From Marsupella aquatica (taxonomy: Eukaryota > Plantae > Marchantiophyta): a DNA stretch of 64,000 bases. The stretch lies in assembly GCA_973895155.1 (NCBI GenBank), contig OZ316891.1:25357899-25421898 (forward strand), in the 5' to 3' direction. Below the pieces are notes generated by a model. It was not told where the DNA came from and made no database searches. It saw only the letters and a program-made list of their open reading frames with translations. The translations under genes and the position numbers were made by a program. This document shows positions 6,533-53,227 of the stretch, piece after piece; within the stretch, counting starts at the first letter, position 1, and each line of letters starts with the position of its first letter.

Positions 6533-9163
6533 ATGTCGCGCACGATCCTCTCCAGTTTGGCCATTCGATTCTGGATGCAGTTCCTATCTACCGGAAGGCA
6601 CTTGGCCGACTCATTGAAACACGCCAACCCGCACCGATACAAAATAGAACGCGAGTATGAGAGAGCCATCCGCCTAGCAAGATGACACCACTACATCCTT
6701 AACTTTGACTACCCGTCCCAGAGCGAGCTTTACCGACCAGTTGAGGTATCTGGGTACTTCTTCAACGGAGACAAATATATCGGGTTTTGGGAAGCACTGC
6801 TTCGGCTTCCAGACGAGGTCTTCAATATCCCAGGGACGATCGACTTGCAACGACATCACTTTGACCACATCCCTGCTCAGGTTCGGGCTATCATCAACAA
6901 CGAGTCCAGTACTAACCGTTCGACAAGGTCGTCCGCACTTGTTTTGGAGAACTTCTACCAGCACCTGTAGAGCTTCATGGGAACTAGACCCGCAACCACC
7001 GGCGCCAGCCCGATGGACCCCATACCCATACCCATACCAATGCAGACTCAGGTTCAGGCTCAGGCTCAGGCTCAGCCTAGCCAACCCCCACCGCCGATCA
7101 TCCCGCCAGCTATACAAGTACGCTCCGTTATCAACGCTGTGGACCTTAGCGACGATGACAAACCTACCCCACCCTTGCTCAGGCGGCCAAGAGGAGCAAG
7201 CACTCGGGGGGCCGACACTACATCGTCCCCTCCTCGGACCCACGGAGCGGCTCCAACAGACAACACGGTGACCGTGGCTGCCCCGGGCCCATTACTAATG
7301 GCGGTAGCACTACCTGTGCCCGCTAGAGAGGATGGGGAGGTGTCACCATCCCCGAGCCAGCCACGGGGGAAGAAGAGGAAGGAACCCACCACTGCATCCG
7401 GGTTACCATTGGCCACGGTAGCCGTGGCCAAGGTGACAATGCACCGCATGGAGGAAAACGTGCATAACAACATCCTCCATCCCAAGCATGCGGTGTACCT
7501 GAAGACTCAGGGATTTGAGCACCTCACCTCTCTCCCCTGGAACACTTGCAGGTACTACGGGGAGGACATGACAGAATTTGTCAAGAATTATGACGATGTA
7601 CGTCAATGGACTCGGCTGCGGGGAAGGAATATGTCCCTCACGGAAGAACGGCTCAAGATGATCTTCGGACTACCCGAAGGTGACCATCGAGTTGAATCAC
7701 GGGCTCCCGGGGGCAAGGGAGCCAAGTACCAATCCTCAAGTTTTCCTTCGGAGGGAGTAGTGGACAACGGGTTTGTGATGAGGACCTGCCTCATGCCCGA
7801 GATAGCTGAGCGGCTGGAGTTCCAAAGGTACGCTCTCCACATGATGGAACCCGGGGGGAAGATCTCTGCCGCCCAGGTTATCCAGGTCGAGAACTATCGA
7901 CCCAGGAGGTGGGCGTCGTACTTTGTTAAGAAATTCCATGAAGAGATGGAGCGGCAAAAGAAGACGCTATATATTGGCGGGAAGGCATATTTCGCTAGCC
8001 ACATCGAGATCATTCTTGAGTGGTACGCTCGGTTTGATCGACGAACCCTTCCCCGTGTCAACGTTGCAAGGCTGGTCCCCGCTAGGTGGGTGTTCCCGGC
8101 CTTGGAGAGACGGCCCCAACCCGAGGCACGAAGTCCAACGGACACGCAGGCTTCACCTACCCCACCCCCGCAAGTAGCTGTAGTCATGACCGAGGAGGTA
8201 CCGGATGGGTCGGTTATCACAACCGTAGATGCGATCCAACAAGCCGGGCTAAGTACAAAAGTTGGTACAACGGAGGTCTTACTCGAGCCCGGACCTTCCA
8301 ATGACCCGGCGGTGGCTATTCCGGAGAACCGGACACCGCAGCAGCAGGACACTCCAGCCCCTTCCAACGCGTCACCTGGGCTGGATGTCACTGCCCCGGC
8401 CCCCGCGCGTGTTGACGTCTGCCCGTGCCCAACTCCGGACAGGCACAACCTGGACCACCCAGAACTCTTCGTACCGGGCACATTTCTGAATGGGCTCCTA
8501 GGAGATTTCTCTCATCAAATTGCCCGGGATACCGGGGAGTTCATGGCCCAAAAGGTAGCCTGTTTCTTCAATCAGGAGTTGGTTGCCGTAGTAAAAGCCG
8601 GTCAGGCCCAGTCGGAGGCCCTTCAGAGGATAGAGCGATACCGGGAGGAGTCTGTATACTTAAAGAACAAGGTTGCGGCTCAGGAGGCGGAGCTTCTGCA
8701 ACTACGACCCAAGGTCGCAGCCGCCGACGAGTCATTAGCAAAGGCGCACGCCCTTACCGCCCTAGCCGAGCAGGCCAAAGCAGGGAACGAGGCCGAGATT
8801 TCACGGCTCCGGTCCCAGATTGACAGTTTGAAGAAACAAACTGTCATCTGGCAGAAAGACTTGGAGGAGGCCGAAGAACGAGCCTAGCGGGACACTACGG
8901 AAATAGCCATGCTACAAGCCGAAGTAACGCGGCTTCAGACCGAAGCCGATAAGCAGGACCAGTTGGTAGGCAAGCTGACAAGCGACGCCCAGCAGCTGGA
9001 GGAGGCATGCCAGGAGGCAGCGGAGGAGACGGACGCGGCAAAGCGAGAGAACAAATCTCTGCTAGACCAAGTCTAGCTCCTCAAGTCGGACAACGATAGG
9101 CTTCGCAGACAGCGGGAAGACCGCTCCCACTCGGGCGGCTCTGGCAAGCGTGCCAGACATTAG
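6533..9163 (+). pseudogene. LTR-internal ORF of Gypsy A (~876 aa; PMD/Transposase_32-like segment plus C-terminal coiled coil)
   Basis: ORF 6977-8887 extends in frame upstream to ATG 6533 (MSRTILSS..) and downstream to TAG 9163 across four isolated stops; motif SLPW..EFVKNYD..LTEERLKMIFGLPEG; heptad-rich C-terminus. Confidence 0.7.
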
Positions 9164-10066
9164 CGGTAGAGTAGGAATAGAATAGGGTTAGGAGTAGCTA
9201 AAGTCAGGCTATTGGGACAGGCACCTACCTTAGTTACAGCAGCACTGCCGTGCTGTCCAGCCTGCGTAGATTAGGATCTTCTAATAAGACATGACCGTTT
9301 TTCGGCCTGACGGTCAGATTAGTTAGGACCTAAGTCAGCGGATCTTTGGGCGGGAGGACACTCCGTTCCTCGGCCCTTAGTATTTAGTGCACCCCTCGGT
9401 AGAGGCAAGGGGGGGGGTTTTAGTCTCAGAGTTGGACATCCGTGGTATGTGCGAGGAGTCCCGACCTCTGGGAATGAAAGAGTACCAAGGGGAGGGGGTA
9501 GGACTAAGTTTGTCGGGTGAGTGCGGAGCCGGGCTCCGTTGTAGTATACTCTCTCGGCCTTGAACCTATTCATTCCGGAGCTATCAGGTCAACCAAGTGT
9601 ACGCACATGTCCCCTATGTAGTAAAATCCTTTCCCATTATTTCCTTCGTGTAAATCAAGATTGTATGCTTGTGCGCGTGTATGTGTGTGTGTGAATCTCG
9701 TGTATAGGTGACAACGCCGGGCCGAACGCACTACCCGAGTCGTGGACGGGGTGCAGCCTGCGGGTATGTGGTTGCAAGCACGGGTTGAGGACCTGTATCA
9801 TAGAATCCGGATCAAAGGCGGACAACACGAAGGCTTAGAAGTCCTTAAGCCGGGGTCGATCCTGTTATCGACTAAGGTATGTTCCGGTGGCGGAACACAA
9901 ACCATACCTAGGAGATGTCCGTATCTAATAGTAGGCGCACTTAGCGCTAGTTTTTGTGAATTAGGTGCATGACGCGCTTCCCTCCCTGCCCGAACCCTCA
10001 TTTTTATGAAGGAGATGCCCGTTTAAAGCTGAAGCCTGAGTTACGGCCAAGGCAGATGACGTGACA

Positions 10067-20767: not shown

Positions 20768-23700
20768 TGTGGTGCGTCCCATGGCTCCCTAAACCCAAGA
20801 AACCCCCCAGCACAAGCCAATTCCCGCAGGTTTCGCGCTTGGCGGGGCCGTTTCCGCGGCTTAGCGGCATGGGACGCTGCTAATCTCTTCTACATCTATT
20901 AACATTTTACACACATATACTGGACAGATCCTTCATCGGGTCATGAGATATGAAGCCGGCCTACTCTAGGCCTTCCCTTTATTTTTCTCTCCTTTGGTTA
21001 GGTATATTTGGATTCCGCCGCCGGAATGATCCCCAATAGGCTTGGTTAAGCCGCTAAGACCTCTCTCAGCTCGACACATCCAACTCTCACTCCCTTGCTT
21101 ACTTTCCTTTCCCTATTAGTTGATGTGGGCACTCTTCACACAAGTTAATGCGACACACAAATAGTAAAATGACTCCTTCTGACTGAGTCATACCATGCAC
21201 TTGCCATACAAACAGTACATCTCATACACAAGCTCTGCGAACTAAGCCGTGAGGCCAACTCTATTCAGCTCTTAGGCATGAGGAAACATGAATATACACA
21301 AGGTCACGGTATAACTAACCGAGAGCTTCTCTTACTACTTGATCCCAGCCGGCTGGTGCAAACTAAAAACTTGCTAAAGAAGAGGCCCTGAGCTCCCCGC
21401 AGCCTAGGTATTTATCCTGGTAGCGGATCCGCCTAATTCTTTGCAGCGTAAGCCTAATCTACCTAACAGTAATCTACCTGTCCGGAGCTACCTATGTACA
21501 GCAAGGCAGGGGCACAAGTGTTGCTCCTACCAGTGGAACCGCAATCCCACAAAGCTAAGTGTCAGGGCCGCTCCTGGTCCTGATCCTAATCTTAAACCTG
21601 GAGATCAGCGCCCGCCCGGCCCACTCACGCCTCCTACCTCCACGTCCGCCCTTCCTAAAAGGAACGGCGCCCTTGCACCGTCACGATACCGGTGGTGGAT
21701 CCTCAATGGATGCCCCCAACGCTTCCTCCTCAGCCACTGCCGTTGGCCCGCCTACTGACAGATTACCTGCCCTTGACCAAGTCAACTCTCCCTCGGCCTG
21801 ACTGGGTCCATCTTCGGCTTCGGCCTCGACACCGGCCTCGGCAATACCCACGGCTTCGGCTTCAGCCACTCCCACGGCTTTGGCTTCACCTTCTTCTAGG
21901 GTAGTTGGATCCTTAGCCGTGACCTTGTCTGGGGTCGGTGCTGGGTCTACCTCCTTGGTCACCACGGCCTGTGGAGTCGTATTACTCTTTGACCCAGAAG
22001 GTTTCCGCTTCTTCTTCGTTGCCGGCTCGGCAGCTGGTCCCTTCCCCTTCCCACTTACTTTCAGCACTGGTGCAGGTGGCGCGGTTTGTTCTTCAGCCAG
22101 TACCACTCCTGGTAACTGGTTCGCCCCAACGGGAGATGGACCTGCTGCAGCTAAGCATTTAAATACTATGGCTTGTTTCTTTAGCCGCTCCGTTTGGTTG
22201 TCGGCCCGCCGCTGTAGGTTCTCCATCTTCCTCGTGATTTCCTCCAACTCCTCCTGGGTCTCATCCAGGTCCTTACGTGCCCCCTCCAGCTCTCTATGGG
22301 CTTCCTCCTGCTCTTTGTGGGCTTCTTCCAATTCCTTCTTCAAGGTAGCCCTCTCCTCCTGGGTTGCTCTTAGCTCTTTGTCGAGCTCTGTCACGATTTC
22401 AGACTCCATTTTATCCATCTTGGCATAAGTCTGACCGAGCATATCGTCCTTCTCCTTTAGGTCGGCTTTGAAGCTGGCCATTAGGGATGCAAGCTCCTGC
22501 TGCAGCGCAATAATCCCTTGATAGGATTTCCCTAACTCGGCCTCCTTCTGCTCAAGGGCTCCGCGGCTTTTCTCGAGCTCCCCCTTCAACGCCCATTTCT
22601 TTCTTTGGGTCTCCGCCATGACCCGGTTGTTGACTGCTATATGGGCCTCCTCTACGTCTCTCAGCTCCTTCTTCCATTTCTCCCTGTCCTTGATTGCGTC
22701 GGCCAATTCTCCTTGGGCCTGAGTCAGTTTATCCTTGATAATCTGACTATCCGCCTGCGCTATGTCCAACTGCCCCTGCATGATATTTAGCTCATGCCGT
22801 TTAATCCGCAGCTCATCTTGGGCTTTCTTGGCCGTCCTTAGATCTTCAATCTCGGCTTCCATCCTCCTAAGCCGTCGGATGACCTCGTCCTTCTTGCTTC
22901 TCTCTAAAGCCACCGCTTCTTCTAATTGGTGCTTCTCCAACTGCTCCCTATGGAAAAAGGGTCCTACCTCCAACTCCTCCCCAAAGATGCCGAGCGCAAG
23001 TTCCCCACACATCTCACCATACTCCATGGCTCTATTCTTAGCGTAGGTGGAGTAAGTAGAGGTGATCGGCATCGCCCATCGCGGCCTCTGCTCCCAAGCC
23101 GTCTTGCGGATCTCTTCAATCGTGGCTAGAGGTTTGCTTCCTTTTTTGGCTAGCCGCCTGATGTCCTCCGGCCAATCTACTCCTGGTAAATCCTTTTCCC
23201 TAGCCAGGGCTGCCTCCTCTCCCTGCCTGATTCGCTCCTGAAATTCCTGCACTGTCTGTTTTATGCCGTCAAAGCTCGGGGGAGCAACATCTGGTGGAGG
23301 AGACTCAGGGCTACTCTGCTGGTTGGGGTCCCCTCGTACTACCCTTGGAAGTGTGGGGATAAACCGGCCACAGGTCCTTACTCCTGGAACGTGATGGTCC
23401 GACCCATAGCCGGAGTTATCATGGCCGCAGTCCTCCACTGCCTCCTCTACTTCTTCTACTTCCGGCTTCTCCCTCTCTTCTTCGTTGGTAGGAGCTTCCG
23501 ACAATTCTGCCTCAGATTCAGAGCTTGAGACTCCGGTAGAGGGGTTTTCCCTTCTAAGTCTGCTTAAGTTGACCTCTGGGGCAGTGTCCTGCATTGTTGT
23601 CATTGTCATTGTCGTTGTTGTTGCCGATCTCCTTTCTTTCTCCAGTAGTTTAAGCAGATTCTGCATGCCTGGTTGCTGCATCGGCAAGTCTTCCTTCCTT

Positions 23701-25343
23701 GGCTTAAACACCTGCTCAATCGTAGGGCTAACAGGTGGTTGAGGCTTTTCTGCTACCGGCCTCGGTGCTGGAGCTTCCTCGGGTGCCCTTACCTGCAGAG
23801 GAAGTACTGGGGCAAAGGTCTGACCTCTGGCATACCGGCACAACAGCGGCATGTGATAGCCAAGCCGCGACATGCTCCCCATGCCGATTACCTGCTGCTC
23901 CTCCTTTAGGATCTTCTTCAATTGGTTGAGGAGGTAGCCGTTGTAGTCCCGGCTTGGGTCAGGCCTTTCTGCCAGATAGACCTGTGCCTTGCCGATCTCC
24001 GCTCTCGGCAAGTTACAATGCATGGTTACCCGCAAGAAGTCGATCATCTCTCCTATGTGCGGGTTGGTGCAGGTGTTTCTGAAGAAGCCATTCTTCGTTG
24101 ATGGTCCGGGAAATGACCGGAACTCCTTGTCAAGCAAGGTCTTCCTGGTATCAACCTTGGTCTTATTGCCTATCGGCAAGCCAAACACTTTGGCAATTAC
24201 CTTGGGAGTAAGATAGAAATCCTTCCCATATATTCTCATGCAATTGGTCTCGGGTTCCCATGACCCCACGAATTCTAATAGGTCTGAATCCGGCACCTCT
24301 GGCTTCAGCCATGGTAATCTTACAAAGGCCTCTAAGCTAGATCCGGCCATGAAGCCTTGGTACTTCTTGGTCTGCATGGCCGTAAAGCATGCATCCTCCT
24401 CCCTTGCAAAATGTAGTTGCACCTCCACCGGTAGAGTTGCCGCCCAGCCCTTCCAGGTGTCATCCTTGGTTGCATTGGCTTTAATGGGATCGACCTCCTC
24501 TACTTCGGCTTCTCCCTGCCTCCTGCTCTACTGTTCGGCTGGCTTCATTGGTGCCGCCGACCTCGTTCTTTTGGCCGGGGTGGTTTCATCGTTGACGGCT
24601 CCCTTCCTCTTCATCTCGGCTGCCGTGGAGGTTTCTCCTAACACCGTTGCTCGGTTCCACCTTTCCGTGCTACCCTTCAATTCCCAGTGTATGTCGTTGT
24701 AGTTCTTGATGGCCTCTCGAATGCCGATGATTCTGTCTTTGCAAAACAGAAGATCGTCGAGCTGATTGGAAGTAGGCGTCCACAAGAACTCGGCCTTGAT
24801 AAGTTCGCCTCCTAAGAAAGCCGTTTTCTGTAGCTCCCACAATCGAGCGAGCTCCTGTCGTTCTCGAGCTGCCCTTTCTGATTCTTTGTCCTCGTAAGTC
24901 TTGATGTACTCAGTTGCCCGTTCAAACAGGCATCCCCAGAAATGTGCCGCTTGATTGACGTTGCTCATACCCTCCTTAGGTCGATCGTCGGTATCTACTC
25001 TCTCCCCGAGTGCTTGCCTAAACAGCTGACAGTAGTTGGCCTCCCGTAGTCGTCTGCCTAGTTCGTGCTCGCAAGTGAGCCACCATCTTCTGCGAGCGCT
25101 CCTTACCCCTCTCCTCTTCCGGCCCTTCCTCCCGTTGATCCTTCCCAGCCGCCGATGCTTAGCGCGCCCTAACCCTAATCGAGTTTTCACCCCCAGTGTT
25201 TTTACCTCCGGCCTCGGCCCGGGTTCCATAGTTGCCCCTAATTATTTATATTTTCTTGTTTTGTCCCTATACTAAGGTGTTTCCAGGGTGTATTCCTGCT
25301 TTACCTACTTAACTGGCCAAGTGATTCCTGGCTAGGCATCACA
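20768..25343 (-). repeat. 3' LTR of Gypsy B (4576 bp)
   Basis: Near-identical to 31567-34026 plus 51084-53224; preceded by the PPT; TG..CA ends. Confidence 0.95.
21681..25229 (-). pseudogene. LTR-internal ORF of Gypsy B (up to ~1180 aa; PMD-like domain plus long coiled coil), one premature stop at 24528
   Basis: ORFs 24528-25229 and 21681-24428 in one frame; the stop is CAG (Gln) in the other two LTR copies; EFVGSWEPETNCMRIYGKDFYLTPKVIAKVFGLPIG. Confidence 0.85.
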
Positions 25344-28300
25344 TAGCTCCCCACTTAATTGTGAAGCATCCTCGCGAACAACTTCATCTTCGTCCATATA
25401 GTATTTCTTGAGGCGGTCATAATGGATGTGAACTGGATACACTTCTCCTGTAATGTTGGCCAATTGTACGGAGCCATTGGAGAACCTCATGGTTACTCTA
25501 AAGGGTCCTAACCATCGAGTGTAAAGCTTCCCTGGAAACCTACTATACCTACTATCATAAAGTAACACAAGATCACCGGTGTGAATACTAACTACTTTCA
25601 ACCTTTTATCATACTACTGCTTCATGATATTCTGTCTATATTCTACTCTCTCGGTTGAAATCATTCTCGCCTCCTCTAAAGCTTCTAACCTATATTCTTG
25701 CTCCTTTAGGCTCTCCTCCGCCGAGGCTCTTTCCTCAATTGTAACTTGAAATGTTGGTATCTCAAGTTGCATGGGTACCAGGGCTTCTTGTCCAAAGGTT
25801 AAGAAGAAGGGTGTATGACCGGTAGTGGATTTATAGGCCAAATTGTAAGCAAAAACAGCAGCAAACAATTTATCATCCCAATCGAGTTTGTTCTGAGCTA
25901 CTGTCTTGTTCAAAATCTTTCCTATAATTCCATTGGCTCGTTCTGTCAATCCATTTGCCTTTGGGTGGTAAGGAGTAGTAGGCCTATGTCTAACTAAATA
26001 CTGTTCATTTAAACGACTAATTATATCATTCAGAAAATGGGTTCCTCTATCACTAACTAATTCTAGGGGTGCTCCATACCTGGTGAAGATCTGCTCATAC
26101 ATGAATCTAGCCGTAGTAATTGCATCATCCTTCGTGGTCGGTCTGGCCTCTACCCATTTAGTTGCATAATCCGTAGCCAGGATTATGTACTTGTTTCGTC
26201 GAGGGTGGGTCAGTGGTTTCAGAGGTCCGATGTAATCAATACCCCACTTCTTGAATGGTGCCAGAGGTAGAATAGGGTGCAGTGGATGTCTGGTGGACGC
26301 CCTTGGTCCTCCCGCTCGTTGACAAGGATCGCATTGTTTGATAAACTGATAGACATCCTTGTGCAACGTAGGCCACCAGTAACCGGCATTTAATATCTTT
26401 TTAGATGTGGTTACTGGAGCAAAATGTCCTCCGGCCTCTTCTCCATGCATAGCCTGTAAGACTCGTTTTACCTCTCCTTTTTCCAAACACCTTTGGATAG
26501 TGCCGCTGATTCCATACCTGTGTAGCACACCCTTAATGTACTGATACTGTCTGACCTTCCGTAAAAAGACTGCGGCTTTTTCTCGGCTTACTCCTGGCTG
26601 TAATCTGGAAGTGCTGAGAAATTGTAAAATCTCAGGGTACCATGTATCAGCTAATTCCACAACGAATAGCTCCTCGTCGGGAAATCGATCATCGATGCAA
26701 TCCGTGGCTGGTTCACCTGTGATCCTTGAAAAGAAGTTGGCATTGGCATGTAGCTTCCTCGGTTTGATCCTCAGCTCATAGTCAAACTCCTGTAATAGCA
26801 AAATCCATCTTGCTACTCTGCCTATAAGGTCCGGCTTATTGACTAGGTATTTCAAACTTTCATGATCGGTATGAAAGATTACCTTGTACCCTAGTAAATA
26901 ATGCCTAAACTTTTTACAGGAATAAATGACTCCTAATGCTTCTCTTTCTGTGGTGGAGTAGTTCCGTTCGGCATCGGCAAGCTGACGGCTTGCGAAGTAT
27001 ATGGGATGGTCCCTTCCTTTCTCATCCAACTAACTTAGTACTGAGCCGATACAGAAGCCCGAGACATCTACAAAAACATGAAAATCTTTGTTCCAGTCCG
27101 GTGCTATCATGACTGGGGCCTCAACTAACATCTGCTTCAATTCTACCACCGCTGTGACTCGTTCGGGTGTGGGTTCGAAGTCTGCACCTGCCTTGAGCAT
27201 GTTGGTTAATGGTAAGGCTAGTTTGGCAAAATCTTTAATAAACCGACGATAATACCCAATGCAGCCTAAGAAGGATCTTACATCCTTTATGTTCTTAGGT
27301 TGCATGATGTCAAGCCATATTGCTAGCTTACCTTTGTCAATCTCAATGCCCTTCTTTGATACCTTGTGACCTAGTAGCACCCCCTCGGTTACTGCAAAGA
27401 AACATTTATCTGGGTGTAATTTGAGACCTACCTCTCTGCATCTCATGAAGGTTTTCCTGAGATATTTAGCATGTTTCGACGCCTTCCCAAATACTGCAAA
27501 GTCATCAATGAAGATTTCCATGAACTTTCTCAAGTAATCATGAAAAATGTTCACCATCAATCGTTGGAACATAGCTGGTGTGTTGCAGAGTCCAAACGGC
27601 ATACGATTGAAGACATAGATCCCCCATTCCGTGATGAAGGCCGTCTTGATTTGGTCTTCCTGCCGAATCCTGATTTGGTTATAACCAGAGTACCCATCCA
27701 TGAATGAATATAGTTCATGACTGGCTACCATGTCTAGTACCATATCAGTAAAGGGTAAGGGAAAATGGTCTTTTAACGTCGCTTCATTCAGTTTCCTGTA
27801 ATCCTGACAAACCCGGATCTTGGGTTTACCATCGGGTCCAGCTTTCTTGGGAACTATCACAATTGGAGACACCCAGTCTGAATGCAGGACTGGAGTGATG
27901 AATCCAGCTTCCACTAGTTTGTCGATTTCCGTTTTGACCAGCAGGGAATACTTCGGGTTCATCCTTCGAATTGGTTGTCGAAATGATTTGGCCCCTAACA
28001 TGAGATCGATTCGGTGTTCTCCTAGTTTTGGGTCTACTCCCTTTAGATCCTGGTGACTCCATGCGAACACATCCTGAAATTCAATCAATAAGTCACTGAT
28101 CTCTTTCTCGAGCTCAGGTGCTAGGTTTCTCCCTAAATTCAGTTCCCTTCCCTCTCCTAAGTCTAGCTTCTGATATTGCCGTGCTTGGATCATATTAATC
28201 TGCTTCTTTAAATTCGGGTCCAGCTCGGCTTCCAGTCTCTCCAGTCTCATACCTCCATAAATAGGAATCTCGGCTGTACTAGCCGAGTCAGTTTCTACCT

Positions 28301-29514
28301 TGATGCCCACAGATTGTCCCCTTGCCGGTCTATGCGGTTTTGAATTGTTTGTTGGCTTCCCATCCTGACTCGGCTCTGGATTCTGTCTGTGCATCTCATT
28401 CACCTCTTCTTCCTGAGGGTCAGGCCGCTGTGCTCTTCCGGCTTCTAATAGGGCCTCAATTTGTTCTGCCCTTGTAATCGGCTTGTATGCCGATCCCTTG
28501 GTATTTAATTCCTTGCCGATGATCGATGGCGTTGTGAACCCTGCCGGCTCTGCCACAACGCGTGCAAAAAATCCACCGTCTCGGGTATTGCTCCCCACTT
28601 AGCCATTTCATCCAACTGGCTTACTTCTTGTGTTTCCTCCGGAATAGAAGCTAAAAAGGTGGACTCTATTGTAAAGCAGTCCTCGACTTCTTCGTATTCT
28701 TCTTCCAAGTCACCTTCCATTGGTTCTTGCCATAATCCACTAGGGGATACCTCTGGTCCAAAGACACTTTCTTCGGTTTGGTCAGCGAGGCATTCTAACC
28801 ATCGTACCTCATCGGCTGATTCCAGTCCACTGTCGTACCCGTCTACCTCCCTGATGCTTCTTTTGCGGTCATCCTTGGTATCCCAGGATACCGTGATAGA
28901 GGGGGTCCCAAAAGTGAACTCCTTCTTACCCCAATCCTCTATTACCTTGGCTAGGTATAGCCATGGCCTACCAATCAATAGCCAAAATGACGTAGGATTT
29001 ACCGGTTTCATTACTACATAGTTAATGCTAAAGAAGATGCCTCCTATTTCTGTTTTGATGCCGGTTAACACTCCCGTGGGAATGACTGATATCCATTGGC
29101 CATGTTCAACACTCTTCCAGTCATCTGTGGTGTTAGACCCCACCCTTTTGCTGTTGAATCAATCATAATACATACCCCTGATCCTCCATCAATGGGTACC
29201 CGTAGTAATAATTCTCCTTGAATCATTAATGGTAAAGCGGGGGCTCCTTGATCTTCTTCTATCATCAGCACGTCGGATTTGGTTGCTACCTTGGGTAATC
29301 TCGGCTTGCCGAGAATAGCCTTCCTTAATTGCTTCCTGAAGTACGGGCTATTTTTAAGTAGTTGACCTACTGTTGCCGAGACTCTAGATTCTAGTACATC
29401 TTTAGCCAGGTCATAGGGAACAATCGGCTTCTCCCTTGGTGGTGTCTCTATCTTGGATTCGGCTTGTTTTGCCATGCTAATCTCCACAGCTGTTGGATCC
29501 TCCGAAGCAAACAA
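25332..29514 (-). pseudogene. pol: pol of Gypsy B (PR-RT-RH-INT) with frameshifts and stops
   Basis: VPIDGGSGVCIM..LLIGRPWL protease; KDHFPLPF, MDGYSGYNQI, FIDDF; ASRQL..TEREALG; WGIDYIGP, SDRGTHF, ANGLTER, RWLGPF. Confidence 0.95.
25344..25360 (-). promoter_or_regulatory. Polypurine tract of Gypsy B
   Basis: AATTAAGTGGGGAGCTA directly before LTR TG. Confidence 0.85.
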
Positions 29515-29523
29515 TGCTTTTGC

Positions 29524-31497
29524 TCATTTCACATCCTTGGCAATGGCTTCAGTGTTCTCCAGGGTTTCTAATTCTCGCAGCTGTTCCTTAACACTAGCCG
29601 TAATAGAGGGGTAGAACAACTTAGGGTGATCTTGATTGAAATCGCTGTCCTGTGAAGGATTGGGGTCGCTGGTGAGCTCATGGCTTACCTGTGTTGCCGG
29701 CGCCTTTCCTTCTCCTTCTGTTGATGTTGACGAAGAGTCAATCTTCTCTTCTTTATCCTTCCCTTTATTTTTGGCTAGCCCATCCCACCTTTCCTTCCTT
29801 CTGGTTGATCGAGTAGAGACGCGGTAGCAATCATGATCCATATCCTCTTCTGAAAATGTTGATAGGGCCTCGGTCTCATCATCAGATGGTCCAAACTCTG
29901 CCTCGGCATCCACTTGCCATCCGAGCTCAATGTGGTTGATCTGAACTCCTCCTAGGGCAGTACCTGGCGGCAAGACCTTGACCGGCAAAAGTTTATGATT
30001 TGCGGCCAATCCTGCCAACCAAGTAGGACATTGTCCTAGCATATGACCTTCCTGTCGGCATCCCATACATAGCTGAGCTGGTTGTCCATCACCCTGTTTG
30101 CGTGCATTCGGGCATTCTCTAGCAAAATGGCCAGGTTGACCACAATTATAGCATGCTGCAAATCTCTGCACATTCAGCCTAGGAGGTACTGACGGATTCT
30201 GAATAATCCAAGGATACATCTCTCCCGGATTGTTCCTTAATCCTGACCACAGGGATGCAGGTCTGTTGGATAGGTCCCGTGCTCCAGTCTCACTAATGCC
30301 AAAAACACTATCAGCGGCATCTCCTAAAAAGTACTCTACTTCTCCCTGACACGGTCTAATCTCGGCCACATGCCGAACATGACTAGTATTGAGTTTAGGA
30401 CATGCATCTTTATGGTGTCCGGTTTTATAACATAAGGCACACCATATAGAGCTATCCTCCTGTACTACTTTCTTCTTCGGCTTTACCTCTGCTATTATAG
30501 CCTTAAGTTGCTCGGTAAGGGCCACGATGTTATCTGGTGGCTTAGCCTCCAGCTTGACTTTCGTCTTCCCTCTTCTTCTGCCCTTCCTCTTCCTAGTTTT
30601 TTCTTCTTCAGAACTAGAAGATGACTCACTCTTGCTACCTCCACTATCCGAGCTTGAGTTATCACTTCTTGACTTCTTAGAATGTTTCTTTTTCTTATCC
30701 TTTTTCTTATGGGGTGATCCCTCCTATGATGAGGAACTCTCAGACTTAAGCTGTTTCTTCCGGCTTGTGATATCTGCATTAATGTATAATTGAATATCCT
30801 TAATTGCATCAACTAAAGTCTCTGGGTTCTCCTTCCTAATTGCAAAACTCATCTTCTGTGGCAAAGCATTCACCAACCATTGAAGTTGCATACCTTCAGA
30901 TGCATTGGTCTTTGTACGTCTTACCAGTTTCTGAAAGCATTACAAGAACTTCCTGAAGGATTTGTTCTCTTTGAACCGAAGTCGTCCCAACTTCAGCACT
31001 GCTAGTTCTGAAGTTCCAATGGGTCGAAACTCCTTAACAAAGAGTGTTTTGAAGCTATCCCAGATGGCTTGATCTTCCACATCTAATGCTCTGTACCAAG
31101 GCCTAGCCTCACCCTTGAACAGGCCGGGAAGAATCTGCATCTTGATGGCCGATTCTCCATTTGCTGCAGCGGTTCCCTCGAAATCATCCAACCATTCATC
31201 CGGATCCTCATCTCCTCTCCCATGAAATGCCTTATAATGTATGCGCGACCGCTGGCTCAGTCTGGTCCCGGGCCTCTCGTCTGGCCGTGCCTCAGGTTCT
31301 CCCATGTCGGTTGGGTACTCGCGTCTTCCTACCGACTCCTCTTCTGGTATATCTTCTTCGACGCCACTTCCAGCTTCGGAGCTACCAGCTCTTTCTGCCC
31401 CTCTCAGTCGCTGTGTATCATGCCACCCGGCGAGCTGCTGCAGTCGAGCTCTCTCCCGTTGAATCACTCTTTCTTCCCTTGGCGTAAGGTCAGTCAT
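29524..31497 (-). pseudogene. gag: gag of Gypsy B (three CCHC knuckles; in-frame stops)
   Basis: DEDPDEWLDDFE..LPGLFKGEARPWY; CALCYKTGHHKDAC, CYNCGQPGHFAREC, CMGCRQEGHMLGQC; homologous to gag A. Confidence 0.9.
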
Positions 31498-31544
31498 TAC
31501 CTATACTTCCTTTCTAACTTCATATCTCACGGCTTAAGAAATGC

Positions 31545-31562
31545 CCCCTCCATCTAGTGCCA
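31545..31562 (-). promoter_or_regulatory. PBS of Gypsy B (tRNA-Asn-like)
   Basis: TGGCACTAGATGGAGGGG 4 nt after the 5' LTR end CGCACCACA. Confidence 0.8.
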
Positions 31563-31566
31563 AAAA

Positions 31567-34026
31567 TGTGGTGCGTCCCATGGCTCCCTAAACCCAAGAA
31601 AACCCCCCAGCACAAGCCGATTCCCGCAGGTTTCGCGCTTGGTGGGGCCGTTTCCGCGGCTTAGCAGCATGGGACGCTGCTAATCTCTTCTACATCTATT
31701 AACATTTTACACACATATACTGGACAGATCCTTCATCGGGTCATGAGATATGAAGCTGTCCTACTCTAGGCCTTCCCTTTATTTTTCTCTCCTTTGGTTA
31801 GGTATATTTGGATTCCGCCGCCGGAATGATCCCCAATAGGCTTGGTTAAGCCGCTAAGACCTCTCTCAGCTCGACACATCCAACTCTCACTCCCTTGCTT
31901 ACTTTCCTTTCCCTATTAGTTGATGTGGGCACTCTTCACACAAGTTAATGCGACACACAAATAGTAAAATGACTCCTTCTGACTGAGTCATACCATGCAC
32001 TTGCCATACAAACAGTACATCTCATACACAAGCTCTGCGAACTAAGCCGTGAGGCCAACTCTATTCAGCTCTTAGGCATGAGGAAACATGAATATACACA
32101 AGGTCACGGTATAACTAACCGAGAGCTTCTCTTACTACTTGATCCCAGCCCGGCTGGTGCAAACTAAAAACTTGCTAAAGAAGAGGCCCTGAGCTCCCCG
32201 CAGCCTAGGTATTTATCCTGGTAGCGGATCCGCCTAATTCTTTGCAGCGTAAGCCTAATCTACCTAACAGTAATCTACCTGTCCGGAGCTACCTATGTAC
32301 AGCAAGGCAGGGGCACAAGTGTTGCTCCTACCAGTGGAACCGCAATCCCACAAAGCTAAGTGTCAGGGCCGCTCCTGGTCCTGATCCTAATCTTAAACCT
32401 GGAGATCAGCGCCCACCCGGCCCACTCACGCCTCCTACCTCCACGTCCGCCCTTCCTAAAAGGAACGGCGCCCTTGCACCGTCACGATACCGGTGGTGGA
32501 TCCTCAATGGACGCCCCCAACGCTTCCTCCTCAGCCACTGCCGTTGGCCCGCCTACTGACAGATTACCTGCCCTTGACCGAGTCAACTCTCCCTCGGCCT
32601 GACTGGGTCCATCTTCGGCTTCGGCCTCGACACCGGCCTCGGCAATACCCACGGCTTCGGCTTCAGCCACTCCCACGGCTTCGGCTTCAGCCACTCCCAC
32701 GGCTTCGGCTTCACCTTCTTCTAGGGTAGTTGGATCCTTAGCCGTGACCCTGTCTGGGGTCGGTGCTGGGTCTACCTCCTTGGTCACCATGGCCTGTGGA
32801 GTCGTATTACTCTTTGACCCAGAAGGTTTCCGCTTCTTCTTCGTTGCCGGCTTGGCAGCTGGTCCCTTCCCCTTCCCACTTACTTTCAGCATCGGTGCAG
32901 GTGGCGCGGTTTGTTCTTCGGCCAGTACCACTCCTGGTAACTGGTTCGCCCCAATGGGAGATGGACCTGCTGCAGCTAAGCATTTAAATACTACGGCTTG
33001 TTTCTTTAGCCGCTCCGTTTGGTTGTCGGCCCGCCACTGTAGGTTCTCCATCTTCCTCGTGATTTCCTCCAACTCCTCCTGGGTCTCATCCAGGTCCTTA
33101 CGTGCCCCCTCCAGCTCTCTGTGGGCTTCCTCCTGCTCTTTGTGGGCTTCTTCCAATTCCTTCTTCAAGGTAGCCCTCTCCTCCTGGGTTGCTCTTAGCT
33201 CTTTGTCGAGCTCTGTCACGATTTCAGACTCCATTTTATCCATCTTGGCATAAGTCTGACTGAGCATATCGTCCTTCTCCTTTAGGTCGGCTTTGAAGCT
33301 GGCCGTTAGGGACGCAAGCTCCTGCTGCAGCGCAATAATCCCTTGATATGATTCCCTAACTCGGCCTCCTTCTACTCAAGGGCTCCGCGGCTTTTCTCGA
33401 GCTCCCCCTTCAACGCCCATTTCTTTCTTTGGGTCTCCGCCATGACCCGGTTGTTGACTGCTATATGGGCCTCCTCTGCGTCTCTCAGCTCCTTCTTCCA
33501 TTTCTCCCTGTCCTTGATTGCGTCGGCCAATTCTCCTTGGGCTTGAGTCAGTTTATCCTTGATAATCTGACTATCCGCCTGCGCTATGTCCAACTGCCCC
33601 TGCATGATATTTAGCTCATGCCGTTTAATCCGCAGCTCATCTTGGGCTTTCTTGGCCGTCCTTAGATCTTCAATCTCGGCTTCCATCCTCCTAAGCTGCC
33701 GGATGACCTTGTCCTTCTTGCTTCTCTCTAAAGCCACCGCTTCTTCTAATTGGTGCTTCTCCAACTGCTCCCTATGGAAAAAGGGTCCTACCTCCAACTC
33801 CTCCCCAAAGATGCCGAGCGCAAGTTCCCCACACATCTCACCATACTCCATGGCTCTATTCTTAGCGTAGGTGGAGTAAGTAGAGGTGATCGGCATCGCC
33901 CATCGCGGCCTCTACTCCCAAGCCGTCTTGCAGATCTCTTCAATCGTGGCTAGAGGTTTGCTTCCTTTTTTGGCTAGCCGCCTGATGTCCTCCGGCCAAT
34001 CTCCTCCTGGTAAATCCTTTTCCCTA
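31567..34026 (-). repeat. 5' LTR of Gypsy B, distal part (split by CACTA); carries the 3' part of the LTR-ORF
   Basis: Matches 20768-~23202; includes ORF pieces 32482-33267 and 33372-33896. Confidence 0.95.
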
Positions 34027-34927
34027 CACTAGTAGAAACCGGGGGGTATTTAGACCCCATTAAACGACTATTCAATACCGTATAGGACTTGGAAACGACT
34101 GGGAAGGACTCTAGTCCTTTATAGGACTGCGAGTCGTATGTTTTGTTACTATAATCAACTGAGTCCTTTATAGAACTGGTTTATAAGTCGTTTAATAGAC
34201 TGGATTTTCAGTCTATTTTAGTCTTTGTGTGGGTAGCTTTGGTGAGTCTTTTTCAGTCTTTTATGGGCTGCGATGGTGAGTCGTTGGGAACAACTCAAAA
34301 GGTTATGGAGGGTAGTCTTTAAATATACTTTGTGGGTTTATAAAATGACTAAAGTAGACACTTTGTGGGGGTTTATAAAACGACTAAAGTAGACACTTTG
34401 TGGGGTATGTACAAGTCTTTCATGTCAACTGGAAATGAGTGATGAAGACCCCACTATACTACTTGGAATGAACTCACTCTTGTGCACAAATAACACATTT
34501 CATTCATGTTTTATTGTGTACTTGGAATGAACTCACTCTATAAGGTCACCATTCACCATGTTAACATTAGAACCTCACACAAATTTTCAGAAAGCCATCT
34601 TCTATACCATGTACACTAATATGAATTCACAGATTCAAACATCATAGACTACAAAGAAGGTCACAAAGCATTCGTCTATACCATACACACTAATACTGAA
34701 TTGATACAAAACAGATTCAAGTATCATAGACAATCACCATAGAGCCATAGTTTGACATCAATCACTTGTTTCATACATACAGAATTCAGAAATATCAATG
34801 TCACACACAACGGCTCCTTCATCCTCTTTACCAAATGGAAAAATTGGTACAGATATTTCTTGGATTTTTCCAAGGCAATGTCAAAATGTAACACAATTCA
34901 CATGATTCTATCTACACTTGTATTCAG

Positions 34928-37900
34928 TCACTGCAGACTAACACACTCTGATGGCCAGAGCACAAGAGATCCTACTGCATCTGCAATTATTTCTTGAGGT
35001 GGATCATCGTCTCTATTCGGAAATGGCAAATTACAATCAGATACAATCACTGTAGTCAACAACACTACTACATGGTCATCCGGGACCACTTTGCCATGGA
35101 ATTTAGCATGATCCGGTCGCAAAATGCCTGTACCCACACATACCTGCGAGTCATTCTCCCATGATAGAAGATTATGGACTGGCTCTGCTGTGGCTATCAC
35201 CTCCACCTTACCCTGGCTGTTTTTCTTGGCTTTCCTGGGTGGCTTATACATGACATTATTCATACCTTGGTTGCGAGTCATGACTTTGGCACGAGTGTTT
35301 TGTGCTGGTGATCGAGAATTGGCTACACTCTTCTTCAAAGAATCTGCATCCATATTTGACACTTCCGATTGTGTAGCAGGATTTCCCTGCGACATCATCT
35401 CAGTATCTGCTAACATTGTACTTGCTTCAATTGAAGCATCTACAATCTTACTTGCATCCAATGTTGCTCCCAAGTTTCGACGTCGCTTCACCCTGCTCCC
35501 ACTTGGTTGAGAGTCTGTCAACTCTGCATCAACTACAATTCAATGCATTGTCCAACATAAGTGAATCACTCATCACATGTGCGCCATGTACATGTCACCA
35601 TCCACAAAGTTGTCACTATCTCCTTACCATTATGAACAGCCTTCTTCCCCTTCTTTGCCATTGCCATATCCTCCATGTCTGCTTCTGCTGATCAATAAAC
35701 AGACCACAAGATTCAGGTTCAATCTATTAACCACTGAATTGTTTCTCAACAATGGTAGGAGAGGAATTTAAAGCATCAGCTTACCTGATACCTCCTTGGC
35801 TATGGTCACTGAGGCACTTGGCACATCTTTTTCATTGCTCTTTGAATCACCTGATACATCAATCATGATGTCACTTCAATTCCCAGTTTATCCAACCAAT
35901 TCTTACAGAAAAGATTACCTCCAACCGGCTTAAGCTTCACAAAACTCCATGCACTTTTCAAATGTAATGTACTGGATCATAGCAGGTTACCTGTCTCAGC
36001 AACCTTTTTGCCATTCTGCTTACCGATTACAGGGTCCAGGTTCTCTGCCTCCACTCTTCCTGCATTCAAACCATTCACTCAATTCATGAAAACTTACTTC
36101 TAACATTTGAACATAGGACACAATGAACAATGGGCCTCTCTTGTTTCAAAATCCTCATTGCATACCTGTGTCAGATTTGCCAATTCCCTTTTTTGTTAAC
36201 AAGGGCACACTTTGTACAATGTTGCCCTCATTGTTTGGTTGGGAACCACCCAATTTTTCAATCACAAGCTTGAAATTAGATTCCACTGATGCAAGAAGGT
36301 TCGCTACAGATGCCTCCACAATATCCAAACGATCAGCCAATTTACTTTCCACTCGAGGGAGTCCACACTCTAATGACTTCAACCGTTCAGACATCTTTGT
36401 GAGAGTTGTAACAGTTCCCTGTCATAACACAGTTTACATATCTCAGATAATTGTCCCCAAGAACTGGTTGCTTACTTCCTACTACAATTCTTTCTGATGC
36501 TCAAGGCCAAATAGTCACAGAACATATAGAATTACAACATAATCACCTGTTTGGAAGTCACACTTGTCACCTCACTCCTTTGTTTCATGAACTCCTCTCT
36601 CACTTCTTGTGCTGATGGTTCTTCACCTGTCAATTTCTTCTGCAGTCCACATCAACATACATATGAATGAAACCAAGTGTTGATTGTCCATGAAAATGTA
36701 ATAATGGTAGCAAGATGATAAGTTTGAGGCTTACTATTAGGCATGTCACTGCCTTACCAATTGTTCTTTCACTGGAGCATAACTTCCTCTCCCAGCCTGT
36801 GAAAGGTGTTTCACTTTGCCTCGAGCATTTGACATCAGTTCACTCTTGCTCTGTCCAGCCTCCGACATGAACCCTTTGATTAACCGTGTCCATTGATCCA
36901 GTTCCAATGATGGGGGTGGTGGCATTCTCCTGTTAGAACCATTGTCTATCCACATCCTTTTCAACCTATGCCTCTCTTGTTTCAAAATCCTCATTGCATA
37001 ATCTGATATGCAATCTTCAACTGGGCCCTTACCATCATTACCAACATAGTCCCACCGTTCAAGAATGTCCTTGCAGATAGCAGCCCAATCAGCTTTGTTC
37101 TGACTCCTAAACTCTGTAATGCTCAAATCTAACCAACGCAATACTTCTCCTCTTAGGTCAGAATGCCAACGGTTCTTACCATCACATGTGGGAGTTATCC
37201 AACCTTCGGAATTCACTTCTACTTTACCAAATTTGTTACTGTCTCCTGCCTTGGTACTCCCTGAAGCGCTACTAGGTGTCCCTCCACGGCCTGGTGTCCC
37301 CCCACGGCCTGGGGTCCCTCCACGGCCTGATCTCCCCCCACGGCCTGGATTGCATTGTCCAAACCTCCCTGGAGTCCCTGCACATTTACAGGATCCATTT
37401 ACAGTCACTTACATTAGGTAAGTATGAATCATAAATCCTGCTGCCAAATATACACTGGACTTCAGAGCAATTCTGCAATGACCAAGTTACCTCTCCCTTG
37501 GCGCATAGATGGTTCTGGACCACCTGTCCTATTGCTTTGTCTTGATGAATTAGGGCCGTTTCTCCCGCCTGTGAATGATTGCCGCCTATCTGAACGTGGA
37601 TGGCCTTTGTTGTTTTCGTGATTGTCCCAATCAGAGTCTGCATACCAACAGGTACATGCCACACTCATGGACCTGTAAGATAAACTCTTTGCCCTAGCTA
37701 CACATCAGATAAGTCCATATTGAGCTAAATCTCTACTACCATCACAAAATCACTAGCACAAGGCACTTACTTGTCCAATCATCCTCCTCACCTGTCCATT
37801 GCCCTCTGTACCCGTCTCTACCACGCTCTGGGTGTTCATATTCATCCCATCCATCTTCTGCTCCATCATAGTCATCATCATAATTATCAGGCGTCCCTTG

Positions 37901-38113
37901 CCAATAACTCTGGCTCCTTCTAGGGTATGGATTATGTGATTTCTCTCTAGCTGCCCACCTACCTGGGACTTGATGAGGGCCCTGTGCATCCTGCACAGGT
38001 GCATTTTTCTGTGAGCCCCCTGCATCTGGGTCTCCATCCATATCCAATCTTTCCTCTTCACCCCACTCTCCAAGCCCCATGTCTGTCTCCATGTCATCAC
38101 CCTCTTCCCCCAT
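34928..38113 (-). CDS. CACTA TnpA/ORF2-like multi-exon gene (Ptta/Transposase_24-like exon 36746-37408, DUF8039-like last exon 34928-35521)
   Basis: LKQERHRLKRMW..QWTRLIKGFMSEAGQSKSELMSNAR; FHGKVVPDDHVVV..IADAVGSLVLWP; exon-by-exon homology to 56737-62300. Confidence 0.7.
37275..37348 (-). repeat. 18-bp coding tandem repeat (PGRGG[T/R] x4)
   Basis: GGTGTCCCTCCACGGCCT-like units. Confidence 0.85.
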
Positions 38114-38290
38114 AGCTTCTGCACAGCACCCACAACCAAACAGGGAGAATCAGCACACTAAATTCAAAGTATCAATCAATTTCATGCATATCCAACTACC
38201 CTAAACATCATTCCAGGCAGCAATTCCCGTTCTGTGACTCTGTGCAGGTAGTCATCCTCAACCTCATACTTGCCAATCGCCAGCTGTTGC

Positions 38291-41200
38291 CTATTGCAAA
38301 TCATCAACCTCATCATATTCCATTTGCCCAGGTTCATCATATGTCTCTCTCAATGTTAAGGGGATGTAGTCAGTCCCTGCCCGAGTTGGAAGTACAGTCT
38401 CATGACTAGGATGCTCGAATGCAGCATGGTCATCCAAACTGAACTCTACTTTACTTCCATCCATCCGCCTGTTCCGTGCTTGGCTATGGCATACCACCCT
38501 CCAGCCATGTGACTCCTCCACATCTGCAAAGAAAGCCTGTTCAACTTGGCTAGGGAAAACAAAAGGCTCAGACCATTCTGGTACTCTGGACCTAAAATTG
38601 GCCAACAAGAACCCATCATGATCACGCTTCATGGTGGCCCTTGGTCTCTGCCACTCTGATTTCACCCATGATCCCTTCATCAATATCACTGGGACACTTG
38701 TGTTACCATAATTCAACACCCAAATGTCGGTCAACTCCCCCACGTAACCCATCTTCATCCACCCCCTCTGTTCTTCAGAGGTTCTCTGCTCAAACACAGA
38801 AATCAAACCACAATCATATGATACACAATGGTCACCCTGCTCATCCCTCACTCGATAATGATTTCCATAAGCTCTCATCCGTTTGTAGGTCAGAATAGAC
38901 AATCGTGGTGGCACAGATAGAAGATACAAATCCTTCTCCATATCTGGGTGATGTCTACTATGCTCTCGAATTGTCACCCGAATCCACTGCTCGAACTGTG
39001 GGAAGGGATCCTGCTGCCCAGAGTGTGCAGCTTTTTGCATATCATATTCCCTGCAATATGAGGTACAGGCATAGTTAGGTCTAAACAACACATGACAACC
39101 TAAGATCACCCTTGGAACAGACAAGAAGCATCACAACAAAGGCAAGTCAATTCAATCACTCACCTCCACCATGGTTGCATAGGCTCTGTGTTTGCCAGCA
39201 CATATGAATGAGCCTTGTCTCGAATCGCAACAGGCAGCTGAACAGCACGTCCCACACCTTCAACAACCTCGCCACTCACTCCATCTTCACCAGATTTCCA
39301 AACTCTTGTCATAGCTTCACCAGACCCAGCCATGTACTCTGTTAGGAATCCCAACGTCTCATCCTTAATGTACCCCAATGCCATGGAAGCCTCTGGCCTG
39401 TAGTATGTTCTCACATGACCTTTCAACAACTTCATGTATCGCTCCATAGGGTACATCCATCTGGTACTGACTGGCCCATACTGCCCTAGCTCTTCTACCA
39501 CATGGATTAGGAGATGAGTCATAACATCAAAGAAAGCAGGGGGGAAGTATATCTCCAAGTCACAGAGGACATAAGCAGCATCCTGCTTCAACTGCTCCAA
39601 TCCTTGGGGATCCCACACTTTCACACATATACGGCGAAATACATTGCACAGTCGAAGAATGACATTACGGACTGGTTTCTGCATGAGACCTCTGAGGCAT
39701 AGGGGCAGAATGTGCTGCATCAACACATGGTAGTCATGTGTTTTCATACTGCCAAGTTTATTCTTTGTAATATGCTTCTTGAAGGCACCAGCATAGCCAG
39801 AGGGCACTTTCAGACAGCTCAATCTATACAAGAATGTCTTCCATTCATCCTGTGTGCACACATAGGGAGCTTGGAACTTGAGAAGTACATTGGGATTGCT
39901 TGCATGGGGCTTCAACCAAAGGTGAGGGCGAATCCCCTTCTGTTGCATATCAGCTCGAACTGCTCCTGTATCTTTCTCACCCGACAAGAACTTCAGCAAG
40001 CTCTCACAAATATTTTTCTCAATGTGCATGACGTCCACATTGTGTTTGCTGGGCTCGAATTCCTGCACTCCACAAAGCAAAGAATTCAACAACAGAAACA
40101 CTAATTAACCACATAGGAGGATTGTAACCAACATCAATCCACCATTGCTCCAATCTAAAATTGCAATCATACAGGGGCTGGAGGCTAAGTACATTACCCT
40201 CCAGTACTCCAACTCCAAGTCCATCAAGGTCTGTCTTTTCACACCGTGTTTCACCACTGGATCCTCAGGTTCTCGATCAGTGGCACTTCTCTTGTCCCAA
40301 TCAGCCTTCCTGGCTGCCCACCTCAGGACTTGCTCTCTGGTGACCCTCTGTGGTGGGCCACGAAGCTCTGTTTTGTTGTTGAAGTGTGCAATTTGAGACC
40401 GTGTGTGCCTGTAAGGATGATCAACAGGCAGATACCTTCTATGCCCCTGAAATTTCATACTGTGCAGGGCATGCGACCACTCACTTGTCACATTTTTCCC
40501 ACATGGTGTGCACCCCACATAGCCCTTTGTCACTCGTCCAGATATGATGCCATGGCCTGGGTAATCTGCTATATCCAGCAAACAAATTGCATGCAGTCTA
40601 AAGGGGCTGGGTCGAAGAAGCCCCTTCAGAACATCATGGGTTAACACCCCTTCTATCCACAAAGTCTTCCACTCTTCCACTGCTGGAGCCAACATGATAT
40701 CTATGAATTGCTCGGTCACAGAAGCTGGTCCAGGGATTAACAGCACCATCATGACAAAAAACCTCTTTGTAGTCATCCATGGGGGAAGGTTGTAATTTAG
40801 CAGCGTAACCGGCCAACATGAATAACGGTTGTTTTTGTCTCCAAATGGGTTTACTCCATCCAGTGATAGACCAAATCGAAAGTTCCGCTTCTCTGCAGCA
40901 AACTGTGGCCACCTCTCATCAACAAATTTCCAATGGTTGGAATCTCCAATGTGACGCTGCAGGCCATCACTGCTCTTGTTATCAGGAGTCCATGTCATCA
41001 GCTTGGAAATGGCAGGGCATCTAAACAGACGTTGTAGTCTAGGAATGAGAGGAAAATGACGAAGAACCTTGGCAGGGTGTGTACATTTCCCTACATTCTT
41101 GTACCTGTGCTTACCACAATGAGGGCATGTCAATTTATCTGCATGCTCTTTGCGAAAGAGAACACACCCATCAGGGCATGCGTCAATAGACACATAGTTC

Positions 41201-53224: not shown

Positions 53225-53227
53225 GAG

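Follow-up and report, generated by a model that had tools for sequence, protein, structure and literature searches.

A 64-kb window of the liverwort Marsupella aquatica (64,000 nucleotides; assembly GCA_973895155.1, contig OZ316891.1, positions 25,357,899 to 25,421,898) contains a Ty3/Gypsy retrotransposon, here named Gypsy B, with a long accessory open reading frame (ORF) inside its long terminal repeat (LTR). The ORF occurs in all three LTR copies of the window, i.e., the 3' LTR, the 5' LTR and a solo LTR. An earlier note on this DNA had described one sense-strand ORF covering up to about 77 % of the LTR in both LTRs and the solo LTR, and this was borne out with 77.6 % and a presence in 3/3 copies. 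Judged by sequence comparison, Gypsy B likely belongs to a clade of presumably bryophyte Gypsy elements with an accessory gene inside the LTR. Because the gene lies wholly inside the LTR, it is copied twice with each integration and left behind in solo LTRs, as the note had proposed.

Comparison of the window with itself by BLAST revealed three copies of one long repeat, one of them inverted (56818-60459). TG..CA ends, polypurine tract (PPT), primer binding site (PBS) and target site duplications (TSDs) agree on an LTR of 4,576 bp with a 5-bp TSD, thus the length of about 4.6 kb previously deduced from the same four signals was confirmed. The whole element is bracketed by the TSD GAGAT (20763-20767, 53225-53229), and its 3' and 5' LTRs are separated by a Kimura two-parameter (K2P) distance of 1.5 %. 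The PBS is presumably of the tRNA-Asn type and that of the relatives presumably of the Asp type. No second PPT block was found in the LTR tails behind the ORF; the tail of Gypsy B may hold the ancestral promoter, R and U5. Between the two LTRs the tails (20768-21680 versus 31567-32481) differ at 6/913 sites, against 59/3,548 in the ORF. A lower mutation rate or partial gene conversion may be the cause of this low divergence.

The longest stop-free stretch of the ORF spans 948 codons; in 1,000 simulated LTRs the longest one averaged 161 codons and never exceeded 312. Each copy carries its own lesions: a premature stop at codon 234 (24528-24530) in the 3' LTR; the insertion of a CACTA transposon, a 1-bp deletion and two stops (codons 714 and 894) in the 5' LTR; and in the solo copy, where the ORF starts at 56933, a frameshift caused by a deletion of 994 bp, after which the ORF terminates at 58957. 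The aligned codons of the solo copy are free of stops, and it has in-frame indels of -3 and +54. The claim that the solo LTR keeps the frame including an in-frame indel is therefore valid for the first ~660 codons and fails at the deletion. Homologues of the ORF begin near Met88 (24968) and codons 1-87 are unselected, so the real gene may comprise ~1,095 codons (~72 % of the LTR), with Met88 as a likelier start, on sequence grounds, than the first ATG.

Purifying selection was observed on codons 88-472. Between the solo copy and either LTR, the ratio of nonsynonymous to synonymous substitution rates (dN/dS) was 0.27-0.47 over 848 codons, the range reflecting the weighting of transitions. It decreased to 0.13-0.23 for codons 249-472, the region of the core domain, and to 0.15-0.28 for codons 88-200; codons 1-87 gave 0.49-1.15 and the two shifted frames 1.36 and 1.70. 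Against a null that preserves the trinucleotide context of each mutation, 94 of the 183 differences between solo and 3' LTR were synonymous (null 58.0 +/- 5.9, p 0.0002), for the core domain 24 of 36 (null 10.9). No selection was seen in codons 1-87, with 5 synonymous of 16 differences (null 5.9). Between 5' and 3' LTR, 24 of 59 differences were synonymous (null 19.7, p 0.15), and neutrality was not rejected, as expected of decay after insertion. The strong signal of the solo comparison together with the unrejected neutrality between the paired LTRs indicates that selection acted while the sub-families were active; the signal dates from active ancestral lineages and does not imply selection on the solo copy itself. 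Of the purifying selection suggested before, the low dN/dS between LTR copies was recovered for the solo against the LTRs, but not for 5' against 3' LTR, and selection on the solo LTR as such has no support.

The window holds a second family with the same layout, Gypsy A. The start of its LTR was fixed from the PPT and its end by a loose contig end that links 10066 to the PBS, a collapse of contig depth and contigs of a copia element that start at 10067. Depth was used only to locate these ends; LTR bins were ~4x the internal ones (X1), from which no copy number was taken. The ORFs of Gypsy A and B are homologous (tblastn E 5e-14, 23 % identity), their pol regions share 67 % nucleotide identity, and Gypsy A has the same PBS and pol-end PPT block as Gypsy B. 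The LTR continues for ~0.9 kb after the ORF in both families (903 bp in Gypsy A). On the minus strand at 10067-13064, a Copia-type gag-PR-INT fragment (PR, protease; INT, integrase) marks the insertion point of Gypsy A at 10066/10067.

Relatives were collected with an integrase query, and the best 80 of 309 metagenome matches were fetched as loci. An iterated profile detected the core domain downstream of pol on the same strand in 13 of the 80. In seven of these the PPT block and a TG stand between pol and ORF (L002, L003, L004, L006, L007, L009, L010), in three the PPT block follows the ORF (L012, L017, L075), and in three it is off-contig, with none preceding the ORF (L008, L011, L013). In L001 the PPT block follows pol and the contig stops before any ORF. 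L012 (1-10852) is a complete, circularly assembled element with the order pol, ORF, PPT, LTR, PBS; directly behind pol it has another G-rich run that resembles a PPT, and it is a useful outgroup. The LTR-internal ORF is thus common to Gypsy A and seven metagenome loci, in agreement with the lineage trait suggested before. Integrase trees were calculated as a quick tree of 99 rows, followed by a careful tree of 41 rows chosen from the first. The LTR-type rows form one clade (support 90/90; 899 of 1,000 bootstrap trees), and the internal-type rows sit in three branches outside it. A single change of layout suffices for the 16 labelled rows, including the three block-less contigs scored as internal-type, and is equalled by 1 of 2,000 label shuffles, in which the sharing of labels among kin has to be considered.

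From its sequence, the LTR gene is homologous to the ordinary extra ORFs between pol and PPT of sister lineages. The trees suggest one move from the ordinary order pol-ORF-PPT to the LTR-internal state, as far as sequence can tell. As the PPT block moves as a unit with the first bases of the LTR, an insertion into U3 is the best fit; most likely a promoter-plus-ORF cassette was placed there, ahead of an ancestral LTR of ~1 kb. A switch to a cryptic upstream PPT, such as the G-rich run after pol in L008, L012 and L014, is disfavoured, since the whole conserved PPT block and not just a purine run changes the side of the ORF. The block of ~35 nt before the PPT (25344-25380; 6031-6067) is kept across families with integrases only ~50-65 % identical, overlaps the pol end in both Gypsy A and Gypsy B and is possibly a structured signal for plus-strand priming.

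Features of the window, with positions on its forward-strand numbering, and layout of the outgroup element L012 on its own contig
Feature	Position	Strand	Remarks
Gypsy B 3' LTR	20768..25343	-	4,576 bp, TG...CA; self-BLAST and inspection of ends
Non-coding LTR tail	20768..21680	-	913 bp; TGT/TGTA-rich
Accessory ORF	21681..25229	-	gag-pol sense; 1,182 codons from first ATG (25229), 77.6 % of LTR
KKKRK basic run	22002..22016	-	aa 1072-1076; resembles a nuclear localization signal, function inferred
Coiled-coil region, heptad-like	22146..22931	-	aa ~767-1028; crude heptad scan and composition
Core globular domain	23814..24431	-	aa 267-472; predicted VANC21/PMD-type fold
N-terminal conserved domain	24630..24968	-	aa 88-200; common to Gypsy A and a Calypogeia protein (phmmer); no known family
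TATA-like box	25244..25250	-	LTR position 94, 282 nt before Met88; consensus match only
PPT and conserved upstream block	25344..25380	-	overlaps pol end; PPT directly outside 3' LTR
Degenerate gag-pol	25381..31500	-	GAG, zinc knuckle, reverse transcriptase (RT), RNase H (RH), INT; Pfam and translation
PBS	31545..31562	-	follows 5' LTR; 24/25 nt same as Gypsy A PBS region
Gypsy B 5' LTR, downstream half	31567..34026	-	ORF codons ~677-1182 and tail
CACTA DNA transposon	34027..51080	-	17 kb, inside 5' LTR ORF; CACTA ends, TSD CTA; Transposase_21, DUF4218, DUF4216
Gypsy B 5' LTR, upstream half	51081..53224	-	ORF codons 1-~676, open
Solo LTR, B family	56818..60459	+	TSD ACTGG; 7.3 % K2P from 3' LTR
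Gypsy A 3' LTR	6068..10066	+	3,999 bp, directly after PPT block
Gypsy A LTR-internal ORF	6533..9163	+	876 codons, one frame, 4 premature stops
L012, ORF	4213-6447		conventional layout
L012, PPT	~6536-6573
L012, LTR	6574-7564		991 bp
L012, PBS	~7576

The CACTA transposon in the 5' LTR has, besides its transposase, minus-strand ORFs (43028-45182) matching BRCT (E 6.5e-14) and an NSD-like PHD finger; by sequence these may be captured or accessory chromatin-reader domains. A plus-strand coding region without Pfam match is split by Gypsy B (18474-20767; 53230 onward). The VFDGNHR stretch of its ORF at 18474-19508 may resemble domains of the ParB/sulfiredoxin type.

For the LTR protein, HMMER found 15 relatives among 1.84 billion proteins, and 3 of 10 looked up were from Calypogeia. 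No Pfam family matched the protein from the window, including PF10536, PF20167 and PF03078; among 11 relative ORFs, that of L017 matched Transposase_32 (PF20167) weakly (E 2.5e-4, 21 bits against a cut-off of 45). Atlas features matched the PF20167 and PF03078 clusters at 0.85, which serves as a lead only. Transposase_32 has been described as related to Athila ORF1 (PMC11728184). A word-based homologue search of the ORF gave 0 of 7,988 candidates, the viral_contigs scan and a metagenome scan with P0143 gave no match, and a sequence profile search of the Protein Data Bank (PDB) gave none. No membrane helix was detected, with a highest hydropathy of 0.98 over 19 residues; an env-like function was rejected for the absence of a membrane helix. 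The linker between core domain and coiled-coil region is of low complexity and predicted to be disordered.

AlphaFold (AF2) modelled the core domain of the 5'-LTR copy (51695-52312) from a 25-row alignment with a predicted local distance difference test score (pLDDT) of 81 and a predicted TM-score (pTM) of 0.81; a shallower alignment had given a first model with pLDDT 46. The top PDB match in Foldseek was 9lnj_A, VANC21 with its target DNA, with a query TM-score (TMq) of 0.55 and a probability of 0.66, and the other rows shown had a TMq of 0.18 or less. VIA-align placed 9lnk_A, again VANC21, first among 48,161 chains (Z 9.1, root-mean-square deviation 3.8, 197 of 206 residues) and the next at Z 2.2; values of Z <8, or < ~13 for helical bundles, can be common in this method. 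The gap to rank 2 and the coverage of the full domain speak for a true match to VANC21, and the core domain is predicted to have a fold of the VANC/plant mobile domain (PMD) type. In a viral fold library the same pLDDT-81 model matched nothing at E<=0.001 (best E 0.058, TMq 0.37).

VANC proteins lift silencing by attaching to their own transposon, where they recognise short motifs repeated in its non-coding DNA (PMC5735166). A structural homology of VANC with the PMD protein MAIN has been reported, and both VANC and the Athila domain have been described or modelled as coiled-coil oligomers (PMC13547354). Angiosperm Gypsy elements carry PMDs (PMC5418596), and proteins of the PMD-C type recognise DNA motifs and counteract Polycomb silencing (10.1101/2024.09.27.615353). 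By analogy, and on the predicted fold, the ORF may encode a PMD/VANC-fold accessory protein with a coiled coil, which would be DNA-binding, oligomeric, nuclear and likely anti-silencing, and which would have moved into U3; we consider this reading evenly balanced between right and wrong. A promoter near the LTR start would give rise to a sub-genomic mRNA ending in the LTR tail. The protein would oligomerise, bind a short family-specific DNA motif and locally relieve silencing in trans, and every intact LTR, paired or solo, would be a possible source of it. The TATA-like box at LTR position 94 is a candidate promoter of the ORF by its sequence. Among 8 LTR-type families, 6 have TATA-like boxes at a distance of 108-311 nt upstream of the presumed start, in several accompanied by pyrimidine-rich leaders. 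That each LTR of the clade is a self-contained anti-silencing cassette with promoter, VANC-like gene and 3' end is a rather doubtful extension of the analogy.

The palindrome TCCGGA is heavily accumulated, in coding and non-coding DNA, in one sub-clade of relatives (L002, L003, L006, L007, L009). It reaches ~3-8 copies per kb in pol of most of these elements and up to 16-18 in non-coding parts; the L007 LTR end, for instance, has 23 copies within 1,391 nt. It is near 0 in L008, L012 and L017. (A)TCCGGA exceeded all 100 simulations in L007 (26 versus a maximum of 14) and L006 (11 versus 7), while also being frequent in coding DNA. The accumulation may present a candidate target motif or an effect of host composition.

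Several observations speak against the anti-silencing reading and the layout on which it is built. The Foldseek match to VANC21 has an E-value of 0.7 and an identity of 10-13 %, a shared fold alone does not reveal what a protein does, and MAIN/MAIL1, whose fold is related, take part in the silencing of transposable elements (TEs) (PMC5418596). No 6-8-mers are over-represented in the non-coding LTR parts of Gypsy A, Gypsy B and the solo LTR. The TATA patterns were picked after looking and 11-58 % of shuffles match too; L006 and L009 have no TATA-like box. None of the three copies of the Gypsy B family in the window has an intact ORF. The clade support of 90/90 is not starred, and L029 falls inside the LTR-type clade without a PPT block in the 162 nt after pol. 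For the seven metagenome loci the LTR-internal state rests on the position of the PPT, because the 3' end of the LTR is off the contig that carries the ORF end.

Two other explanations are each possible, although rather unlikely. The gene inside the LTR may be real and its VANC/PMD-fold protein have another nuclear task, i.e., guide integration, activate transcription or export RNA. The lack of a repeated target motif in the LTRs of the window would fit such a task, as would the extra N-terminal domain, which has no counterpart tested in VANC21 and is equally conserved; plant extra ORFs are of unknown function and several roles have been proposed (PMC7264820, PMC11963269). Yet the searches returned a single solved structure of this fold, that of a TE-encoded anti-silencing factor on its target DNA, and one sub-clade of the relatives accumulates TCCGGA across the element. 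In the other explanation, the ORF would have come to lie in the LTR by chance and without harm: splicing or read-through in full-length elements would allow expression from the 3' LTR alone, and the 5' and solo copies would be silent passengers. Env-like 3' ORFs depend on spliced RNA for their expression (PMC7264820), and the solo copy in the window is frameshifted. The context of the first ATG is favourable to initiation in every copy, and this ATG follows the TATA-like box by 15 nt, too close to be served by it. Codons 1-87 are, however, unselected, and Met88 is near the point where homologues begin. The families counted above have TATA-like boxes ahead of the ORF, several with pyrimidine-rich leaders, and the layout persists across a deep clade though the length of the LTR quadrupled.

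It is improbable that the ORF is situated in R or U5, with a genomic RNA that starts near the 5' end of the LTR and the ORF as first cistron in an Ogre-like manner. The clearest TATA-like box is indeed near the LTR start, and the Gypsy B tail has only a weak variant at position 3928. But the tails of ~0.9 kb match the whole LTR length of the conventional relative L012, the TGT/TGTA-rich sequence resembling a 3' end lies after the ORF and not before it, and a minus-strand strong-stop DNA of ~4.4 kb would presumably be needed. An artefact, with a local duplication or some internal sequence mistaken for LTR or a GC-rich stretch left open by chance mistaken for a gene, has next to no probability: 17 kb of foreign DNA do interrupt the 5' LTR, but matching TSDs around element and solo LTR, PPT and PBS at the exact ends, tails free of a second PPT block, the ORF-length null and the selection signal refute it.

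What the extra ORFs of plant Gypsy elements do has been asked for a long time, and the predicted model would tie one such family to the solved fold of VANC21. A protein gene of 3 kb can enter an LTR and persist across a deep clade. With the gene residing in the LTR, solo LTRs, usually seen as non-coding leftovers, may be coding units, and surveys restricted to the internal region would miss such a gene. If the anti-silencing cassette were true, integration would double the gene dose, and recombination to solo LTRs, by which hosts usually delete elements, would leave units that still unsilence their family in trans. Retrotransposons would thereby have a first system of the VANC type, and the counter-silencing role of the VANC/PMD fold would extend to bryophytes.

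The affiliation of Gypsy B to Ty3/Gypsy follows from its TG..CA LTRs, PBS, PPT, TSD and the order GAG-(PR)-RT-RH-INT. No chromodomain was matched in Pfam and pol ends at the PPT, so the element is not a chromovirus. A single RNase H runs into the integrase zinc finger, which sets it apart from Tat elements with an extra RNase H (TatI-III, Ogre, Retand). Phygy/Selgy have a 4-bp TSD and no extra ORF (PMC6317226), unlike Gypsy B with 5-bp TSDs and an extra ORF. A 5-bp TSD and a tRNA-Asp/Asn PBS are listed for Athila and TatII (PMC6317226). In the integrase tree, the rows of the window group with proteins of the liverworts Calypogeia and Riccia, apart from Gossypium, the database proteins being without lineage labels; the nearest named integrase relatives are from Calypogeia fissa and Riccia, which points to a liverwort as host. 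The TSD of Gypsy B agrees with the Athila/TatII entry, the PBS type being our assumption. Liverwort elements without extra RNase H have been described as Tat Z1/Z2 (PMC10508981, PMC13468544). By their description, Tat Z1/Z2, reported from Marchantia, are like Gypsy B in lacking an extra RNase H and a chromodomain; in the native RNase H of Gypsy B the catalytic D-E-D is visible. The available part of PMC10508981 does not treat LTR structure or extra ORFs.

The extra ORFs of Athila/Ogre/Retand (OTA) elements formed the comparison set (ATHILA ORF1 PF03078, Transposase_32 PF20167, PMD PF10536, TRP28 PF04195). Like these, the Gypsy B ORF is long, has a globular domain and a coiled coil, is under purifying selection and has runs resembling nuclear signals. 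Published surveys place OTA extra ORFs within the internal region, on the 5' or the 3' side of gag-pol (PMC6317226, PMC7264820, PMC11963269), whereas that of Gypsy B follows the PPT and is inside the LTR. In the literature searched, with most subscription papers outside its coverage, no plant Gypsy element was found described with a protein gene in its LTRs, and the available parts of PMC12885004 and PMC2410132 have nothing on ORFs in LTRs. By the predicted model, the core fold resembles that of VANC21 from Arabidopsis VANDAL21 (PDB 9LNJ/9LNK) and of the PMD proteins MAIN/MAIL. VANC21 and the Gypsy B ORF are both TE-encoded and both have a coiled coil, but VANC is encoded by Mutator-type DNA transposons and reported as dicot-specific (PMC13547354), and the Gypsy B protein differs from it in having no sequence match; the window's LTRs also lack a repeated target motif. 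It may work like VANC, but was not filed as one because it is encoded in a Gypsy LTR.

Among other elements with a gene in the LTR, as in Gypsy B, the gene is duplicated with the LTR at integration, without homology to the gene described here. Known examples are sag of the mouse mammary tumour virus, the overlapping nef of the human immunodeficiency virus and the 5S rRNA of Cassandra in plant LTRs. Compared to these, the gene of Gypsy B is 3-3.5 kb long and takes up three quarters of its LTR; its likely origin is the 3' extra ORF of the element itself.

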